Shown: one piece after another, positions 165-22,423 of the stretch
Layout: each line of letters opens with the position of its first letter
Position numbering within the stretch: the first letter of the stretch is position 1
NCBI GenBank assembly: GCA_950096895.1
Contig: CATNBF010000001.1
Coordinates: forward strand, 20,853 to 84,852
Direction: 5' to 3'
Length of the DNA stretch: 64,000 bases
Origin: an uncultured bacterium
GTDB lineage: Bacteria > Pseudomonadota > Alphaproteobacteria > Rs-D84
Position numbers and translations under genes: made by a program
Notes under the pieces: model-generated
Databases searched by the model: none
The model's input: only the letters and a program-made list of their open reading frames with translations
Told to the model about the DNA's origin: nothing

Positions 165-193
165 TTGCGTAAAATCGCGCAAAGGGCTAGAAT
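165..193 (+). promoter_or_regulatory. sigma70-type promoter of Cys-rich locus 1 (TTGCGT - 17 nt - TAGAAT)
   Basis: The block cttgcgtaaaatcgcgcaaagggctagaattcct is repeated verbatim at 13620-13652 and in diverged form at 14836-14867. It lies outside the inverted repeats. Confidence 0.6.
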
Positions 194-216
194 TCCTAGG
201 GTATCGGGGAATTTAC

Positions 217-258
217 CTATGCCTAATTCAAAGGGTGGTTTAGATTAGGCATAGTTTT
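217..258 (+). terminator. leader hairpin (ctatgcctaat / attaggcatag, 16-nt loop) followed by TTTT in this cassette orientation
   Basis: 11-bp stem at 217-227 / 244-254, then tttt at 255-258. The same hairpin at locus 3 is followed by ttaggtc instead. Confidence 0.5.
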
Positions 259-321
259 CGTTCCAAAAATCCCCATTTTCTGCCCCTTTTTTATGACTTA
301 ACTATGCCTAATCTAAACCAC
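235..321. promoter_or_regulatory. invertible DNA switch, OFF-like orientation (IRL 235-256, cassette 257-299, IRR 300-321)
   Basis: Perfect 22-bp inverted repeat gtggtttagattaggcatagtt / aactatgcctaatctaaaccac. The 43-bp cassette is the reverse complement of the cassette at 14927-14976. Confidence 0.75.
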
Positions 322-1041
322 GGTTTTTTATTATTGGCCGCGGTTATGGCGGCAGCCCCGGCATGCGGGGCAATCCCGGGCGGGATTTGCGGCAAGCTAA
401 GCCCGGATTATCCCTTAAATGGTGTTGTTGTACCGGGTGGCGCGTTTATAAATGGGGCCATAGTGCCCGATAAACATTATTCTTGCGCATCTGATGTCTG
501 GGAATTAGACGATGTTGTCAGCAATTACCAATGCATTGAATTCACCGATATTCGATTAAAAAGTACAGAAAAAAACAAAGAATTTTATACATTAAGTGGA
601 TGTACATACGCCGGATTTGGTTGTCATCTGAACAATATTGTATACACCAAGGCTGGCACCCCACAATGCCGCGAATGCACCGGAAATCGCGTGGTGTATC
701 CCCTGCGTCGTACATAATATGAAGATATTAATGGTGTCCACAACGCATATATCCATAACAAAACTGTGTGCGAATACTGTGACAATGGATATTACATCAT
801 GATGCCAGAAATAAATCCCGGCACAGGCCCCACATGCAGAAAATGCCCCGATGCAGATTTTCCCGCAGATGAAATATACTCGTGGGGTGATGGCGGTGTT
901 GATACATGCATGGCATTGATTTATATCGATCCAGACACTGATGGCGTTCATGGTCAAGATGATTCTGGGCAATATATCATCACATATAATTCAGATGACA
1001 TGATGTATGAAGATACAATTGCGTGCCCCTATCGGCCATAA
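304..1041 (+). pseudogene. Cys-rich secreted protein, paralog 1, interrupted by an in-frame TAA at 715-717
   Basis: It starts with arm-encoded MPNLNHGF plus a signal peptide (LLLAAVMAAAPACG). ORFs 304-717 and 766-1041 share one frame and are separated only by a single TAA (..PLRRT*YEDINGVHNAYIHNKTVCEYCDNGYY..). CxxC and CxxCP motifs occur on both sides. Confidence 0.6.
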
Positions 1042-2248: not shown

Positions 2249-3187
2249 CTAGCGGCCCAAACCATATTCACGAACAATACGCGCAATAATACGTGTCGGA
2301 ATACCGGTCTGACGTGATGCGGCGGCCTTGCTGCCCTTGGCCTGGGCCAATGCCAGTCGAACCATTTCAATTTCTGCATCGGTAATCTGGCGTCGTTGTT
2401 GGGGCTTTGGCCGTACCGGCAGAATTTGGTATTTTTTATTCCACAAATACATCTGACTGGGGCAGATGTCATATTTCTCTTCGATAACAAAGAAACTGGC
2501 CTGGGCCGATTGGGCATCTTGGGGCATCTTATTCATGATACCCAAGGCTTCATCCAGATATGCCTTTATTTCATCTTCTGTAAACTTGCGCCGTGACGGA
2601 ATCACAAAAACTTTTAGTTCGCGATTCCATCCGCGAATAACAGAATCATGGATATTATACTTGCGACTGGCATTCATGATCCCATGGTCAGATGCATAAT
2701 TCAAAATTTCACGCTTTTTCTCGATCGAACATATCTCGATCACCCCATGATAAATACCGAACTTTTCCGCCCAGCGATAGACACTCACTTCGTCAATAGC
2801 AAAACGTCGACACGCCGCACCTAAACCTTTATCATTCGCATAACGCAAGATTATTTTCTTTTGCTTGTCCGTAAAGTGTTTTAAGACTTTTGATTGAAAA
2901 ACATGCATTGTCTGGTTCCAGGAATAAATCAATGACGGTTTCACATCATACTTTTGACCGGCGACCGATACACCGTTATCGCGGGCATATTTCAAGATTT
3001 CCTGTTTTTGTGCATCTGTAAATTGACGATATGGTGCCCGCATAGGATAAATTTGATATGTATAATTCCACTGTGTTATCATATTACGATTCAAACGGAA
3101 CTTTCGTGCCGCCGCGCTAATCCCATTGTCACGTGCATATTCTAATACAGGTATGATGTATTCTGCGGTCAATTCAGTATATTTCAT
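2249..3187 (-). CDS. protein built from about six tandem helix-turn-helix modules
   Basis: Repeating ~50-aa units such as ILKYARDNGVSVAGQKYDVKPSLIYSWN, ILRYANDKGLGAACRRFAIDEVSVYRWA and ILNYASDHGIMNASRKYNIHDSVIRGWN. They resemble the HTH of IS3-type transposase OrfA. Confidence 0.55.
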   Translation of the reverse strand: MKYTELTAEYIIPVLEYARDNGISAAARKFRLNRNMITQWNYTYQIYPMRAPYRQFTDAQKQEILKYARDNGVSVAGQKYDVKPSLIYSWNQTMHVFQSKVLKHFTDKQKKIILRYANDKGLGAACRRFAIDEVSVYRWAEKFGIYHGVIEICSIEKKREILNYASDHGIMNASRKYNIHDSVIRGWNRELKVFVIPSRRKFTEDEIKAYLDEALGIMNKMPQDAQSAQASFFVIEEKYDICPSQMYLWNKKYQILPVRPKPQQRRQITDAEIEMVRLALAQAKGSKAAASRQTGIPTRIIARIVREYGLGR

Positions 3188-11600: not shown

Positions 11601-11885
11601 ATGTTCAAACCATTATACAATTACGTTTTGTTAGAAAGAATCGAAGAAGATAACAAAACCGCAGGCGGCATTATTATCCCAGATAACGCGCGGGAAAAAC
11701 CATCACGCGGCCGTGTCATTGCCGTTGGCGATGGGGCAATGGATGGGGCCACACGCATTCCGATGTCGGTCCATGTGGGCGACACGGTTTTATTTGCAAA
11801 ATGGGCATCCAGTGCAAATGACGTCAAACTGGACGGTACAGATTATGTCTTGATCAAAGAATCTGACATTTTGGGAATTTTATAA
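11601..11885 (+). CDS. groES: co-chaperonin GroES
   Basis: Canonical sequence ([26 protein letters not shown]..). AAGGAG SD. Confidence 0.97.
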
Positions 11886-13555: not shown

Positions 13556-13620
13556 TGTGTCCCGCCCCAATGGTGCCAAAATCCGGCATTGTGTATTTGC
13601 GAAAAAAGCAAAAAAATCAC

Positions 13621-13649
13621 TTGCGTAAAATCGCGCAAAGGGCTAGAAT
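13621..13649 (+). promoter_or_regulatory. sigma70-type promoter of Cys-rich locus 2 (TTGCGT - 17 nt - TAGAAT)
   Basis: Identical to the block at 165-193. Confidence 0.55.
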
Positions 13650-13690
13650 TCCTGGTATTGCGGGGAATTTAACTATGCCTAATCCAAAAG

Positions 13691-13777
13691 GACGTTTTTC
13701 TGGCATAGTTTTTTGAAAAATAAAATCCCAGATTTCTGCACTTTTTTATCCCCCATGATACGCCTAATCTAAACGTC
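13691..13777. promoter_or_regulatory. decayed copy of the invertible switch, OFF-like orientation
   Basis: The left arm is gacgtttttctggcatagtt, with its core deleted. The right arm is atacgcctaatctaaacgtc. The cassette at 13711-13757 has the same orientation as locus 1, and the leader hairpin is followed by tttttt. Confidence 0.6.
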
Positions 13778-13789
13778 GGTTTTTTATTA

Positions 13790-14726
13790 TTGGCCGGCAT
13801 CATTATGATGACGCCCACCAAAATGGCAAACGCGGACACAGAATGTTATCAATGTCGCATTACCCAGAAATTTTATGGTGGCTGTCCAAAGCCCAGCGAA
13901 ATCAGCAATAATCCCTATTTCACGTATGAAAAATGCATCTGTACCCAAACAACACCACCGACCTGTATGATTATGGATGTTTTTAATGGATGCCCACTGA
14001 AAAATGCGGTTTATTGCCAATGCACCACTGGCCCATGCACCAGCGGCGGTGGTTCAACCGGGGGCGATGGGGGCGATACATGCGAAAAATTACCATGCAG
14101 CGCGTGCGATGCGAACGACGGCACCTGGCGCAGCAACGGCACCGGATATGAAATAAAAAAAGACCGGTGGCACATGCAGTGGCAACACATGTAATTCCAA
14201 TGGAACCTGTTCGGGGGAAACGGTTGAATATCGATGTGCCACCGGATATTGCGGTGAAACAACCGACGGCAAAACCGGATGTACGGCATTTTCTAGATCG
14301 GAACTAAGCACTGGATACTGTTTCTTTCAATTGGCATCTGGCATGCCATGCCCCCCGAATGCGGTGTCTTGTAAAGCCGGGGTCAGTGGATTCATGAAAG
14401 GATCCTGTCCGTCAGGCGTCACGGGTTGCACATGCGAATACACCAAACCGATCGCAAATACAAATACCGTTAACGGATATTCGGTATCATTACCATCATC
14501 CGGACAATGTAAAATCACCAACGGACCCATACAATTATGCGCCGCGGGATATTACGGCAATCCAGACAGCGGCACATGCCAAAAATGCCCGTCACCAGGC
14601 ACATCTGATGTCTTTGGCATCGGCACAGGCACCAATACAACAATTGACAAGTGTTATATTCCCGCCGGGACCCGCGGTTCAGACACCAGTGGAACATTTG
14701 AATACACCGCCCAGTGCGCCTATTGA
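13790..14726 (+). pseudogene. Cys-rich secreted protein, paralog 2, with lost ATG and a frameshift at an A7 tract
   Basis: The family start ATG CCT AAT is ACG CCT AAT here (13760-13768). ORF 13790-14194 and the open frame 14157-14726 overlap and differ by +1 at aaaaaaa (14155-14161). Confidence 0.6.
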
Positions 14727-14836: not shown

Positions 14837-14864
14837 TTGCAAAAAATCATTCCAGTGCTAGGAT
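14837..14864 (+). promoter_or_regulatory. sigma70-type promoter of Cys-rich locus 3 (TTGCAA - 16 nt - TAGGAT)
   Basis: Occupies the same position as the promoters of loci 1 and 2 within the conserved leader. Confidence 0.5.
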
Positions 14865-14907
14865 TCCTGTGGCGTTACCAGAAAATTTACTATGCCTAAT
14901 CCAAAGG

Positions 14908-14995
14908 GTGGTTTAGATTAGGCATAGTTAGGTCACAAAAAAAGGTGCAGAAAATGGGGATTTTTGGAAAGAGATTTATGCCTAATCTAAACCAC
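14908..14995. promoter_or_regulatory. invertible DNA switch, ON-like orientation (IRL 14908-14926, cassette 14927-14976, IRR 14977-14995)
   Basis: Perfect 19-bp inverted repeat. The cassette is the reverse complement of 257-299. It places AAGGTG (14942-14947), 6 nt and ATG (14954) in frame with the arm-encoded MPNLNH. Confidence 0.8.
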
Positions 14996-16216
14996 GGGTT
15001 TATTCTGGGGATGGCGGTTTTATTGCCATGCGCGGCATTTGGTGCAACATGTGATGGGCAAACCCAAAATAATTGCCCCAGTGGTTGTTATTGGGCGACA
15101 ATCGGGCTACCTAATGCATCGACTTCCTGTAGAGCATGTCCCCATGGTTATGATTACTCTACAAACGGCGCAAGCCAACAAGGGCAATGCTATAAAACTG
15201 CATCGTTTCCCCCATATCAAGCGATAAACTGCTATTATCGCTCAGACACCGATTGTCAAAATATCCCGAAATGCGGGGATACTCAGAACTGCACGCAGTG
15301 TGATTTTGTATGCACTAATGATGCCCATATAGAGCATGATGATGGTAACCAAAACATTCCCTGTAAATGCGCCTTAGATGAACGTGATTGCGCCGATCAA
15401 GATAAATATGGCGGGGCCGACGGAATCGCCAGCTGCACCGAAAAATGGAACGCGGACAACCAAGAATATTTTCTAAATAAATTAACTTGCAAGTCAAACT
15501 ATATCAAACATAATAATCAATGCATCATAAATGAAAAAGATTGTGATTCAATGCCAACACATGCCAAGACTTGTAAAATGATATGGGATTCGGAAAAAAA
15601 CGACTATGTAATGCACTTGACATGTGACAAAAACTATATTGCCATTGATAATAAGTGCAAAAATATTACGGAGACGGATTGTCTGACATATATCCTGGGA
15701 CAGCAGGAGCTAAAATCACTATACCAGGCTTGCACCACCAATCATGGCAATTTTCATATTACCGGAAATTTGACAACGGAATCGGGACAAGCATCCCTGC
15801 GTAATTGTCTTTGTAAAAAAACGGGGGCCACCCAAGTGTCCGGTGGTAAATGTTACCAGGCCTATGCATTAGTGGGATCGACCGGCAATTATACATGGGC
15901 CGATAACACACATTGGGCAGATTGTGTATGCAAGGATTACTTTTGCCCGAACGAAACCCATGGATGTGCAATCCCGGCCGAAAATGAATATTGGGACAAA
16001 GATTCAAGGGAATGCCAAACCTGTCCAATGGGAACCAAAACCAAATTCGGCAATGACACCGATGCCTATGACAGAAATCCAAAACGCACCGCCGGATCCG
16101 CCGCATGTTTCGTAGACCGCACGACCACATTCTGTGATGCATTTGGGTGTTTTAATCTGGAGGATATTTCCGATACCAATCGGTCATATTTGATAGAGAA
16201 TACAAACAACAAATAA
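14954..16216 (+). CDS. Cys-rich secreted protein, paralog 3 (intact)
   Basis: MGIFGKRF-MPNLNHGFILGMAVLLPCAAFG signal peptide, then about 400 aa rich in CxxC and C-x2-CP-x-G motifs. The alternative start is the arm ATG at 14978; the track ORF starts at GTG 14945. Confidence 0.8.
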   Translation: MGIFGKRFMPNLNHGFILGMAVLLPCAAFGATCDGQTQNNCPSGCYWATIGLPNASTSCRACPHGYDYSTNGASQQGQCYKTASFPPYQAINCYYRSDTDCQNIPKCGDTQNCTQCDFVCTNDAHIEHDDGNQNIPCKCALDERDCADQDKYGGADGIASCTEKWNADNQEYFLNKLTCKSNYIKHNNQCIINEKDCDSMPTHAKTCKMIWDSEKNDYVMHLTCDKNYIAIDNKCKNITETDCLTYILGQQELKSLYQACTTNHGNFHITGNLTTESGQASLRNCLCKKTGATQVSGGKCYQAYALVGSTGNYTWADNTHWADCVCKDYFCPNETHGCAIPAENEYWDKDSRECQTCPMGTKTKFGNDTDAYDRNPKRTAGSAACFVDRTTTFCDAFGCFNLEDISDTNRSYLIENTNNK

Positions 16217-19877: not shown

Positions 19878-21782
19878 ATGAGAATGATTAACCGCATCTT
19901 GACAGTTTTTTTAGCCGTCGTAACGATGGCAACATCGGCGCATGCCGTACCGGCCGCGTGCAAGAGCGAATTGTATCGTCGTGCCCATCCGGAAAAATGC
20001 ACCGAAAAAAAATCAAATTCTTTTCTGTCGCGCAACGCGATCTGGATTGGTGGTGGGGCCGTGGCGGCCGGCGCAGTGGCCTTGGTTGCAATGGCGGCCG
20101 GTGGCGGATCCAGCTCTGGGGCCACGGCACATGTGCAATCGACCAATGATTCAAACTTTGCATTTGGGGCACCCAATGTTCCCCAGTATTCTTTGCCCAC
20201 ATTAAGCATTTATAACCGCGTGGGCTATACAGATCCGAAACTGTTGGCGGCGGCCCGTAAAACAACCCGCTATGCCCGTAATGCGGCCCAATACGAAGAT
20301 ATTCGCCTGGCCTATTCCTTGGCACGTGGATATACCGGCAAAAATTCAACCATCGCCATTTTGGACACGGGCGACTATGGCTATCATGGAACCGCAGTCA
20401 AAAACATTGCCGGCGGTGCCATTGCCCCGGATGTAAAAATCAACGAACACAAAATCGTTGATAACCACGGTGAATTCATTACATACGACAAAATTGCGAA
20501 CATCATCGCCAACGATACATCTGCCAACATTTTTAACGCCAGCTGGGGCACAGAATCCCAGGCCGGCCTGAACGCGGCAACAATTAAAAATCGGGCGCAA
20601 ATTGTTAACCTGACCAGTGAATCTTTTGTTAACGAAATCACATCGGCGGCCCAAAATCGCGATGCCATCTTTGTCTGGGCAGCGGGCAATGACCACAAAT
20701 CCCAAAGCACGGCCTTGGCCGCCATGCCGTTGGTGGTACCAGAACTGGATGGGCACTTTATTAATGTTGTCGCATGGGACAGCCGGACCAATTCGCTGGC
20801 CGATTACAGCAATGCATGCGGCGCAACCCAAATGTATTGCATCACGGCCCCGGGCACAGATATGAACGTTGGCATTGGCAGCGCATCCGGGACCAGCTTT
20901 GCTGCGCCGATTGTTTCAGCCGCGGTGGCGGTAATTCGTGAAGCATTCCCATACATGACCGCCGGCGAAATTACCAGTCTGTTGTTCACGACCGCCCGTG
21001 ATTTGGGCACCCCGGGTGTTGATGAAATTTATGGGTGGGGCATGCTGGATCTGGAACGGGCGCCACGACCGGTGGGGGCCACATTGGTCTCTATCGACGA
21101 TAACGTCATGGCACCAATGCAGACCGCCCGCGCCGCCGGTGTTATTGGCCGCCAGATCAAGTCCGCCAACCTGCGCTTTGCATTCTTTGACAGCTTTGGT
21201 CGTGCCTTTGACGCCAAATTAAACGACAGTATTAATTTCCGCCCAATGGGTCGTGCCATTGAACGCGTCCGCGGTAATGCCGACATGTCTGTATCATTGG
21301 GCAACATGGATTTTGGATTCACACGCAGCAACCTGTTGGCATCTGATGGATTCTTGCGCACAGGTGAACGTGACCTGATGGGCTTTGTCGGGATGCGCGG
21401 TGAAATGATGCTGGGGGATGTTCGCCTGTTCCAGCGCACACGCATGGGATTCAGTGCCCCAACCGCCGCCCGCGATTCCATGATCCGTGAATTTTCAAAT
21501 ATCATCAGTGCATCTGTCACCCTGGGGGCAACGTATGGGGACTGGACATTCACAGTGGGTGCCCCAGAAACAATCGTTTCAGGTGACATGACACTGCGTC
21601 TGGCGACCGGTCGTGCGGCCGATGGACAAATCCAGTATCGCAATCATCGCGTTTCTTTGGTTGAAACCCGCCCGGCAATGGAATACACCGCGAAATACAA
21701 GTTCATCACCGCCGGTTATATTGATAATCCGTCCGGAACCGATGAATTCTATGTCATGGCACGCGGCCAGGTCAGCTTTTAA
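19878..21782 (+). CDS. subtilisin-like (S8) serine protease with a C-terminal autotransporter-like beta domain
   Basis: Triad contexts ILDTGD, YHGTAV and GTSFAAPIVSAA. Signal peptide MRMINRILTVFLAVVTMATSAHA. The C-terminus ends ..ARGQVSF, an aromatic terminus typical of OMPs. Confidence 0.75.
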   Translation: MRMINRILTVFLAVVTMATSAHAVPAACKSELYRRAHPEKCTEKKSNSFLSRNAIWIGGGAVAAGAVALVAMAAGGGSSSGATAHVQSTNDSNFAFGAPNVPQYSLPTLSIYNRVGYTDPKLLAAARKTTRYARNAAQYEDIRLAYSLARGYTGKNSTIAILDTGDYGYHGTAVKNIAGGAIAPDVKINEHKIVDNHGEFITYDKIANIIANDTSANIFNASWGTESQAGLNAATIKNRAQIVNLTSESFVNEITSAAQNRDAIFVWAAGNDHKSQSTALAAMPLVVPELDGHFINVVAWDSRTNSLADYSNACGATQMYCITAPGTDMNVGIGSASGTSFAAPIVSAAVAVIREAFPYMTAGEITSLLFTTARDLGTPGVDEIYGWGMLDLERAPRPVGATLVSIDDNVMAPMQTARAAGVIGRQIKSANLRFAFFDSFGRAFDAKLNDSINFRPMGRAIERVRGNADMSVSLGNMDFGFTRSNLLASDGFLRTGERDLMGFVGMRGEMMLGDVRLFQRTRMGFSAPTAARDSMIREFSNIISASVTLGATYGDWTFTVGAPETIVSGDMTLRLATGRAADGQIQYRNHRVSLVETRPAMEYTAKYKFITAGYIDNPSGTDEFYVMARGQVSF

Positions 21783-22423
21783 CCATCGACATTTTCATAA
21801 CTGACATTGAATGTTTCTAAATCAGGGATTTCAATCCCCCGCCCCATCAAGAATCGATTCAACGTATCACGATGGACACGTAATCGCCGCGCCAAGATAT
21901 AACGACTGTTACCACTGTATAACTGTTGACAGATATATTTTTCACGCGTGGCCAGTTTGGCGGCATTACGACTGCCCAGGGGCCGACCCACATGACGTCC
22001 TTCGGATTTAACACGGGCCAAGGCCTCCTTGGTGCGTTGCGATATCAAATTCCGTTCAATTTCCGCCGACAATCCAAATGCAAATGCCAAAACCTTGCTG
22101 GTGATATCACTGCCCAGGCGATAATTATCCTTGATCGTCCAAACGCGTGCCCCAATATCCATACAGTAGTGCAAAATACTCATAATCTGTAATAAATTAC
22201 GCCCCAGACGGGATAGTTCTGATGCAATAATTAAATCGTCTTTGCCAATTTTTTTAATCAGTCGCCCCAACTTTCGCTTGTTCAAATCAACCGTCGACGA
22301 AATTGTTTCTTCGATCCATTTATCGACCACAATATTTTCTTTTTCACAGAACTTTTGTATTTCAAAGCGTTGATTCTCCGTCGTTTGGTGGTCGGTCGAA
22401 ACGCGGATATATCCGTAAATCAC
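21779..22423 (-). CDS. small serine recombinase (resolvase/invertase family)
   Basis: N-terminal MIYGYIRVSTDHQTTENQ (catalytic Ser motif), ELSRLGRN, and a C-terminal HTH (ILARRLRVHRDTLNRFL). 214 aa. Confidence 0.85.
   Translation of the reverse strand: MIYGYIRVSTDHQTTENQRFEIQKFCEKENIVVDKWIEETISSTVDLNKRKLGRLIKKIGKDDLIIASELSRLGRNLLQIMSILHYCMDIGARVWTIKDNYRLGSDITSKVLAFAFGLSAEIERNLISQRTKEALARVKSEGRHVGRPLGSRNAAKLATREKYICQQLYSGNSRYILARRLRVHRDTLNRFLMGRGIEIPDLETFNVSYENVDG

Follow-up and report, generated by a model that had tools for sequence, protein, structure and literature searches.

The first few hundred nucleotides of the analysed DNA (the window, 64,000 nt from an uncultured alphaproteobacterium) raise the question of whether a hairpin followed by a run of T, upstream of a start codon without Shine-Dalgarno sequence (SD), represents the OFF state of an invertible switch, and if so, which DNA is inverted and which step of expression is switched. 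The region 165-333 is likely to be one of three very compact site-specific inversion switches located at the 5' end of genes for cysteine-rich secreted proteins. At the first of these (locus 1), the following parts were distinguished:

165..193, plus strand: fixed promoter-like element of locus 1; -35 TTGCGT (165-170), 17-bp spacer, -10 TAGAAT (188-193)
217..254: putative left recombination site of locus 1; 38-bp palindrome with the 26-bp core CTAATTCAAAGG-GT-GGTTTAGATTAG (223-248), centre GT 235-236
237..319: DNA predicted to invert at locus 1, 83 bp; left arm 237-254, segment 255-301, right arm 302-319; OFF orientation
255..264, plus strand: T-rich tail TTTTCGTTCC, candidate U-tract of an OFF-state terminator; adjoins the 3' side of the palindrome
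304..717, plus strand: locus 1 gene as read in the OFF orientation; begins with MPNLNH at the arm ATG, which has no SD
308..333: core of the putative right recombination site of locus 1, CTAATCTAAACC-AC-GGTTTTTTATTA; centre AC 320-321

A preceding reading of the sequence alone (the sequence-only reading) had described the hairpin with its T-run, and pairing, loop length and T-run are all borne out: CTATGCCTAAT (217-227) pairs with ATTAGGCATAG (244-254), 16 nt lie between them, and TTTT (255-258) follows directly. It was also right in stating that ATG 304 is not preceded by a purine-rich SD; the upstream sequence is cttttttatgacttaact and the energy of its duplex with the anti-SD is +0.7 kcal/mol. 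The repeat arm CTATGCCTAATCTAAACCAC is found inverted at 235-254 and direct at 302-321, the latter containing ATG 304. The reading frame starting there is closed by an in-frame TAA (715-717) and is open again to 1041; a second assembly of the species has this premature stop as well. The product contains 5.7% Cys, and no match to it was obtained in Pfam or NCBIfam. The outer half of the right site lies within codons for G-F-L-L-L, and at most examined loci, all three loci of the window included, this half starts with GGTTT (or GGGTT). Further downstream, the ORF 2249-3187 encodes several helix-turn-helix domains and has weak matches to transposase-accessory proteins.

Three paralogous loci in the window share the fixed promoter-like element, the 38-bp palindrome, a segment of 47-48 bp and the repeat arm with ATG. 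The parts of the other two are:

13621..13780, plus strand: locus 2, a decayed copy in OFF orientation; promoter-like element identical to that of locus 1
14837..14864, plus strand: fixed promoter-like element of locus 3; TTGCAA (14837-14842), 16-bp spacer, TAGGAT (14859-14864)
14890..14927: putative left recombination site of locus 3; centre GT 14908-14909, followed by ttaggtcac, without U-tract
14910..14993: DNA predicted to invert at locus 3, 84 bp; ON orientation
14954..16216, plus strand: locus 3 gene, intact, 420 aa, 8.8% Cys

The earlier descriptions of both loci agree with the sequence, i.e. locus 2 has the orientation of locus 1 with a longer T-run (TTTTTT, 13709-13714), and at locus 3 ttaggtcac stands in place of the U-tract. 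The left site of locus 2 (13673-13708) is eroded; in its arm, ATG has changed to ACG (13760-13762), and the frame further on is interrupted. The N-terminus of the locus 3 product resembles a signal peptide (MGIFGKRFMPNLNHGFILGMAVLLPCAAFGA); no family match was found in Pfam or NCBIfam, and an exact-protein look-up with either start gave no match. The products of loci 1 and 3 are alike only over the first ~27 residues. The 20-mer arm occurs four times in the window (235-254 and 14908-14927 on the minus strand, 302-321 and 14976-14995 on the plus strand) versus 0.01 expected from a dinucleotide-preserving shuffle, and an 11-mer occurs eight times versus 0.74 expected. Within loci 1 and 3 the arms are identical at 20/20 and 19/20 positions, respectively. 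The segment 255-301 was aligned with the reverse complement of 14928-14975 at a score of 33, whereas the forward alignment gave -9. Loci 1 and 3 thus differ by a real inversion, their segments being reverse complements of each other. An intact gene is found only at locus 3, the sole locus of the three in ON orientation. Due to the premature stop at locus 1 and the decay of locus 2, both OFF copies may no longer work as switches.

The DNA of the hairpin (223-248) reads as a dyad-symmetric imperfect palindrome of the form 12-2-12, that is, as a recombination site resembling hix and gix. The 12-2-12 symmetry is read directly from the sequence, and the right arm runs on into a second such site (308-333). 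The partial third copy of the repeat seen earlier in the left half of the hairpin does exist, but the role in alternative pairing assigned to it is not upheld; the simpler reading makes it the outer half-site belonging to the left site. Crossover probably takes place at the centre dinucleotides, GT (235-236) and AC (320-321). In 25 of the 27 loci compared in the window and in related genomes, the left centre dinucleotide is the reverse complement of the right one (types GT/AC, AC/GT and GA/TC), so they fit the requirement of a serine recombinase with a 2-bp crossover. The flipped unit most likely comprises the ~83 bp between the centres of the two 26-bp sites, with the arms travelling along. 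A unit of 43-50 bp had been proposed at first; in relatives, polymorphisms of the arms flip together with the segment, hence the unit exceeds 50 bp and the crossover falls within the outer 18 bp of the arms. Such a position is consistent with an exchange at the centre dinucleotides and does not prove these. With 47-48 bp between the arms, the spacing is far below the several hundred bp of invertasomes of the Hin/Gin type. For the preferred unit, the expected junctions after flipping are:

Locus 1, ON: GATTAGGCATAGTTAAGTCATAAAAAAGGGGCAG
Locus 3, OFF: GATTAGGCATAAATCTCTTTCCAAAAATCCCC

Inversion between loci (e.g., between the left site of locus 1 and the right one of locus 3) was set aside by reasoning only, as it would part both genes from their promoters.

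A scan using one genome per species detected the three-half-site architecture in many gut alphaproteobacterial assemblies, including the wild-mouse assembly CASCZI01, Candidatus Enterousia, a bin labelled "Rickettsiales" and a circular assembly of 0.96 Mb. CASCZI01 carries at least 8 such loci on 5 contigs. A 16-mer scan of the genome collection returned 99 loci, which are mostly chance matches; about 10 matches in one cyanobacterial assembly belong to an unrelated repeated element sharing the 16-mer by coincidence and were discarded. The orthologous loci L004 and L008 of two assemblies have flanks of 93% identity, and a 95-bp block including the arms is 97.9% identical on the opposite strand. 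When either locus is flipped between the site centres, near-identity is restored, inner-arm polymorphisms included. In a related species, for which samples were grouped by an identical invertase protein, one locus was found in one orientation in four samples (L103, L106, L107, L109) and in the other orientation in two (L105, L108), the sequences being near-identical otherwise; the arm polymorphisms TTATG and AGATG are exchanged according to orientation. As judged from these assembled genomes, homologous switches in relatives are shown to flip actively.

For the species of the window, the opposite orientation was not found in two other assemblies, which were identified via the neighbouring genes for GroEL and choloylglycine hydrolase and match the window. 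Both carry loci 2 and 3 as in the window, and one also carries locus 1. Consensus assemblies give the majority orientation only, so that the agreement of three assemblies is weak evidence. Metagenome scans for the flipped junctions and for a general left site returned nothing; the collection apparently does not contain the lineage, and the scans therefore say nothing on flipping. The pattern for the flipped junctions required GGCATAG, hence a flipped locus 3, which reads GGCATAA, would be missed. Five samples of the species P0111, which has a promoter-type cassette, all show the same orientation. For species P0002, no orientation difference was seen in the single contig that reaches the switch.

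The candidate for the enzyme is encoded at some distance from the switches, which are dispersed at 0.2, 13.7 and 14.9 kb of the window:

21779..22423, minus strand: candidate recombinase; small serine recombinase of 214 aa, Mpi master DNA invertase family by profile matches

The product matches Pfam Resolvase at 1.7e-30 and the NCBIfam equivalog NF009949 with 298.7 bits (cut-off 272) over residues 1-196; its best solved relatives are the DNA invertases 4m6f and 3uj3. Homologues of 73-90% identity are present in very many assemblies labelled Alphaproteobacteria or Rickettsiales, and their NCBI names agree with the assignment to the Mpi family. The neighbourhood of the invertase gene is conserved (alpha-2-macroglobulin, PBP1C, invertase, S8 protease, rpsB, tsf). 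Among the ORFs scanned, i.e. the first ~22 kb of the window, no second recombinase gene was found. From its co-occurrence with the sites, and from the conservation of both protein and site, we infer that this invertase exchanges strands at the switches.

To determine which start codon is used in the ON orientation, the flipped DNA of locus 3 was inspected. It contains the SD AGGTG (14943-14947, -6.2 kcal/mol), the start codon ATG 14954 and the codons for MGIFGKRF, which precede the arm-encoded MPNLNH. An independent gene call in assembly L100 predicts a protein of 420 aa with a start equivalent to window position 14954. Both orientations were rebuilt for each of 27 switches, and at 17 of these one orientation only has an in-frame ATG or GTG 24-48 nt (mostly 24-36 nt) upstream of the arm Met. 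Most of the upstream starts have an SD (GGGGGG, AAGGGG or GGAAAGGAAA) with duplex energies of -4.1 to -11.3 kcal/mol; in the non-coding orientation, the arm ATG has no SD and a value of ~+0.5 kcal/mol. The peptide encoded in the ON orientation is conserved as M(S)QKSGIF, then Lys-rich codons, leading into MPN(L/P)(N/K)(H/G)G. Locus L085 is an exception and shows the reverse pattern. If flipped, locus 1 would read AAGGGGCAGAAA-ATG-GGG ATT TTT GGA ACG AAA ACT-ATG with an SD energy of -7.6 kcal/mol. SDs are in use in the window, as its genes have a median duplex energy of -4.3 kcal/mol versus -2.1 kcal/mol for random 20-mers. The predicted ON start is ATG 14954, in which case ATG 304/14978 is an internal Met. 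Accepting the arm ATG as ON start, as had been supposed for ATG 304, would mean passing over a better SD with an in-frame ATG 24 nt upstream at locus 3, an arrangement recurring at the 17 loci. The related claim that the flip removes the ribosome-binding site is upheld in that the OFF loci 1 and 2 are without one; it fell short in that the ON block adds SD, start codon and 8-12 codons and not just a purine tract.

For the second proposed effect, termination, a score for hairpin plus T-tract was calculated in the form of d'Aubenton-Carafa with a threshold of zero. Both OFF forms of the window are below threshold (locus 1 -13.7, locus 2 -15.5); values of -42.4, -38.7 and -55.7 were obtained for locus 1 flipped, locus 3 as found and locus 3 flipped, respectively. 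Scores above zero were reached by 15/27 OFF forms and 0/27 ON forms, a separation which is partly circular as ON and OFF were labelled by T count. With the orientation set by coding alone, the 10 nt after the palindrome contain on average 7.0 T in the non-coding versus 2.2 in the coding orientation, and the number is higher in 17 of 18 loci, which are related (~19 sequence groups) and not independent. In relatives, the tail at the homologous positions is TTTTTATTTTTT or a similar sequence, with scores above zero. The hairpin of locus 1 was not called on the plus strand by a consensus terminator scan. Its stem has 12 pairs including 4 G-C, the loop measures 6 nt if an inner stem of 3 A-U pairs forms and 14 nt otherwise, and the tail is UUUUCGUU; by the criteria for intrinsic terminators, the stem should measure 4-18 bp and include ≥ 4 G-C pairs, the loop should have 3-10 nt, and a U-rich tract should follow (Lesnik et al., quoted in PMC2784873). 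The hairpin energies are -16.6 kcal/mol for locus 1 and -19.6 kcal/mol for locus 3, and for the leader 200-270 a folding energy of -21.3 kcal/mol was obtained (z = -3.15 versus shuffles). Of the OFF-state terminator claimed earlier, the layout is confirmed, as the T-rich end adjoins the palindrome only in the non-coding orientation, but the d-scores within the window are below zero. Taken together, the predicted terminator appears to be a real, conserved design feature of the family, strong at homologous loci of relatives and borderline in this genome. Here, the loss of translation has better support than termination. On the opposite strand, the T-rich tail reads as Lys, Asn and Arg codons of the n-region of the signal peptide, hence T-run and coding sequence are two readings of the same DNA; examples of such peptides are KNKK (L048), SKKKTTKKS (L050) and GKRF (locus 3).

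Both variants of the leader were folded as well. At full length, the minimum-energy structure pairs the left arm with the start-codon arm over 22 bp, and this optimum is identical in both orientations, so it cannot tell ON from OFF. RNA pairing of left arm and start-codon arm, which had been suggested as part of the switch, was therefore rejected. The left-site hairpin would presumably form first during transcription. No RNA family was found at any switch in Rfam.

The block upstream of the left site is identical in loci 1 and 2 and is conserved in locus 3 as TTGCAA-16-TAGGAT. The element of locus 1 agrees with 8/12 consensus positions and is therefore not listed by a strict scan; relatives have stronger TTGACA/TATAAT versions at the same place. 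The blocks 165-193 and 14837-14864 are candidate promoters outside the invertible DNA. Within 255-301 and 14928-14975, neither a scan nor direct reading found a σ70-like hexamer pair in either orientation. Promoter-type cassettes occur in three other lineages, namely TTGACA-N18-TAAACT (L103 group), TTGACT-N17-AATAAT (L004) and TTGACA-N18-TAAAAT (L113 group). The segment of the CASCZI type has no start codon and contains in one orientation the hairpin TCCCGGATTTCCGGGA followed by seven T (d up to +34); genes of this type have their own SD downstream. The same sites thus enclose three kinds of cargo in relatives, i.e. a promoter, a terminator or a start region.

In the proposed mechanism, the fixed promoter (165-193) would transcribe into the left site (217-254), then through the ~83-bp invertible block and the right site. 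The Mpi-family invertase (21779-22423) would exchange strands at GT 235-236 and AC 320-321. In the ON state, as at locus 3, the block would contribute the SD, the true initiation codon and roughly the first 8 signal-peptide codons, and the frame would continue across the right site into the gene. In the OFF state, as at loci 1 and 2, the complement would be presented, leaving the SD-less arm ATG as the only in-frame start, while the T-rich complement of the purine-rich Lys codons would land right after the left-site hairpin and produce a terminator-like layout. The sizes of the effects on transcription and translation are likewise predictions of this model.

Three other explanations were weighed against this mechanism. 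Taken literally, the first reading states that a flip of 43-50 bp makes a terminator and removes an SD serving the arm ATG (304/14978), which would be the start codon in both states. The restriction of the hairpin-plus-T layout to the OFF orientation, the sequence GGAAAGAG located 3-10 nt upstream of ATG 14978 at locus 3 (SD energy -4.4 kcal/mol) and the same logic in the cwpV switch (PMC2784873) speak for it. We nevertheless consider it unlikely: an SD of -6.2 kcal/mol with an in-frame ATG 24 nt upstream is the stronger signal and recurs at 17/27 loci together with a conserved peptide, and the codon at the arm position is a non-start codon (CAG, AAA, ACC or ATC) in the ON state of several relatives. 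Moreover, the terminators of the window score below zero, and arm polymorphisms which flip with the segment require a unit of > 50 bp. It is quite unlikely, too, that the inversions are old and without present use, with loci 1 and 2 dead and frozen OFF, locus 3 constitutively ON, and hairpin and T-run having no present role. The decay of the OFF copies would fit such a history (in-frame stop at locus 1; erosion of the arms, ACG in place of ATG and a disrupted frame at locus 2), as would the identical orientations in all assemblies of the species. On the other hand, three consensus assemblies, each showing the majority orientation, carry little weight in this matter, the arms of loci 1 and 3 have stayed identical at 20/20 and 19/20 positions, the window encodes an intact invertase of the matching family, and homologous switches flip between samples of one related species.

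A classical invertible promoter, in which the 47-bp segment would hold the promoter and the upstream block would be something else, e.g., an operator, is very improbable. Related species do hold promoter-like pairs at the same cassette position, and the Mpi regions of Bacteroides are described as carrying promoters. In the two segments of the window, however, a σ70-like pair is missing in either orientation, the segment is conserved as coding sequence, and all three loci, like homologous loci of the start-codon type, have a conserved -35/-10 pair ahead of the left site.

In its logic, this switch is closest to that of cwpV in Clostridioides difficile, whose promoter precedes the left inverted repeat; when OFF, a stem-loop with poly-U forms where this repeat meets the inverted region, the poly-U tract being replaced in the ON orientation (Emerson et al. 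2009, PMC2784873). An upstream promoter, putative in the window, and an OFF layout of hairpin and T-run are common to both. The invertible region of cwpV has 195 bp and contains no coding sequence (PMC2784873). The window switch, in contrast, has 47 bp between its arms, and these carry SD, start codon and N-terminal codons; compared with the cwpV layout, its terminator is weak by score. The recombinases differ also, because cwpV uses the tyrosine recombinase RecV and the candidate of the window is a serine invertase.

The Mpi system of Bacteroides fragilis (Coyne et al. 2003, as cited in PMC11868660) is closest in enzyme, as indicated by the NF009949 cut-off passed here, and in genome-wide organisation. 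Both have one invertase and dispersed loci with one repeat consensus in front of genes for surface or secreted proteins. In Bacteroides, the regions inverted by Mpi are described as carrying promoters, whereas the cargo in the window is SD plus start codon, and the host is an alphaproteobacterium and not a member of the Bacteroidales. The invertible units in B. fragilis measure ~170-230 bp versus ~83 bp in the window, and the Mpi repeat sequence of B. fragilis differs from the window repeat.

Regarding the anatomy of the sites, Hin, Gin, Cin and Pin are closest, having inverted 26-bp imperfect palindromes of the form 12-2-12 with an asymmetric 2-bp core, as in the window. The hix sites are palindromic with 26 bp, and Hin inversion was tested down to 200 bp (PMC2427008). 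Systems of the Hin/Gin type invert segments of ~1-3 kb and need a Fis-bound enhancer, for which the 47-bp segment of the window has no room; they flip a promoter or swap C-terminal tail-fibre exons, unlike the window switch. The half-site motif AAACC-NN-GGTTT is one which we take to resemble hixL and gixL. No confirmed precedent of a serine invertase acting on sites 85 bp apart was found. Partial intergenic or gene-altering invertons have one site in the coding sequence and one upstream (Milman et al. 2023, PMC9881135; Chanin et al., PMC10028968). As in these, the inversion in the window would alter the sequence of the gene itself; published cases are mainly long, shufflon-like domain swaps, whereas the present one is very short and would toggle the translation start. 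The literature search yielded no paper linking this clade to invertons.

A wider interpretation, for and against which we see about equal weight, is that a clade of uncultured gut Alphaproteobacteria has a conserved Mpi-family invertase and ~83-bp cassettes acting as interchangeable plugs (promoter, terminator, or SD with start codon and n-region), the third type using both strands of the DNA. The novelty would be in the size, in the cargo of SD and start codon, in the use of both strands and in the interchangeable cargo across a little-studied clade. One scaffold would then serve three control points in related genomes, i.e. promoter, terminator and translation start. If confirmed, an inversion switch can be much smaller (47 bp between the arms) than those known so far, and uncultured gut Alphaproteobacteria with small genomes are added to the organisms which vary cysteine-rich surface or secreted proteins by one master invertase. 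If the cassettes flip, serine invertases can act on sites < 100 bp apart, which raises the question of how synapsis at 85 bp works; bending of the DNA by phased A/T tracts of the cassette may be of help. For gene callers, the N-terminus of the same gene will vary with the orientation of the switch.

The three genes controlled by the switches (304-1041 at locus 1, 13790-14726 at locus 2 and 14954-16216 at locus 3) have only about 27 N-terminal residues in common. All three are cysteine-rich, with 5.7-9.7% Cys and numerous CxxC motifs, and none of them matched a Pfam or NCBIfam family. This is a pattern to be expected if the products were variable proteins, either secreted or displayed on the cell surface.

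Two of these genes are interrupted. At locus 1, an in-frame TAA is present at 715-717, beyond which the frame is open to 1041; another assembly of this species has the same stop codon. The gene is either a pseudogene or the source of a truncated product of 137 aa. Locus 2 (13621-14726) shares its promoter block with locus 1 base for base, but has eroded recombination arms, an ACG in place of the arm ATG, and a reading frame broken into two pieces:

13790-14194, first piece of the locus 2 reading frame
14331-14726, second piece of the locus 2 reading frame

Locus 2 looks like a locked copy in decay.

Within the promoter block, the palindrome CTTGCG-TAAAAT-CGCAAG was found (164-183 and 13620-13639), which the scan marks as terminator-like on the minus strand. 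The pattern TTGC-N10-GCAA was seen again at some related loci, e.g. L024, and the palindrome could be bound by a regulator at a site that overlaps the -35 element. In the invertible block (237-319 and the homologous blocks of the scanned loci L001-L098), runs of A or T of at least 3 nt repeat every ~12 bp, with autocorrelation maxima at lags of 11-13 and 24-25, the statistics being inflated since the sequences are mutually related. Such a periodicity may cause intrinsic bending and aid recombination across so short a spacing.

In the window, the invertible DNA includes the motif GCAGAAA(A)T(C)(G/T)GGG(A). Two related species have this motif at a fixed position outside the switch, one of them downstream (L113-L117, about 11780-11810) and the other upstream (L103-L109, about 60 nt before the left site). 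The recombination sites seem to have been relocated around a common 5' leader over evolution.

Four contigs of related assemblies (L054, L081, L119 and L120) terminate within a switch; in three cases the break is at the left site. The presence of both orientations in the sample, or the repetitiveness of the site, would break an assembly there.

The 16-mer ATGCCTAATCTAAACC also matched in one cyanobacterial assembly. These matches were rejected as chance sharing by a repeated element of ~200 bp, unrelated to the switch and frequently located at contig ends:

L006, L014, L023, L026, L037, L075, L076, L082, L084 and L087, loci of the cyanobacterial repeat

At a distance of 2 kb from locus 1, a gene is located whose product weakly matched accessory proteins of transposases and might serve as an accessory DNA-binding factor:

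2249-3187, minus strand, 312-aa protein with several helix-turn-helix domains

One switch-controlled, cysteine-rich gene of a related species, with a product of 145 aa, is followed directly downstream by two small ORFs and a gene for a reverse transcriptase (RVT_1):

L103, 17844-18869, RVT_1 neighbourhood
L105, 17639-18820, RVT_1 neighbourhood
L106, 17479-18504, RVT_1 neighbourhood

The reverse-transcriptase gene and the small ORFs may constitute a diversity-generating retroelement or a retron.
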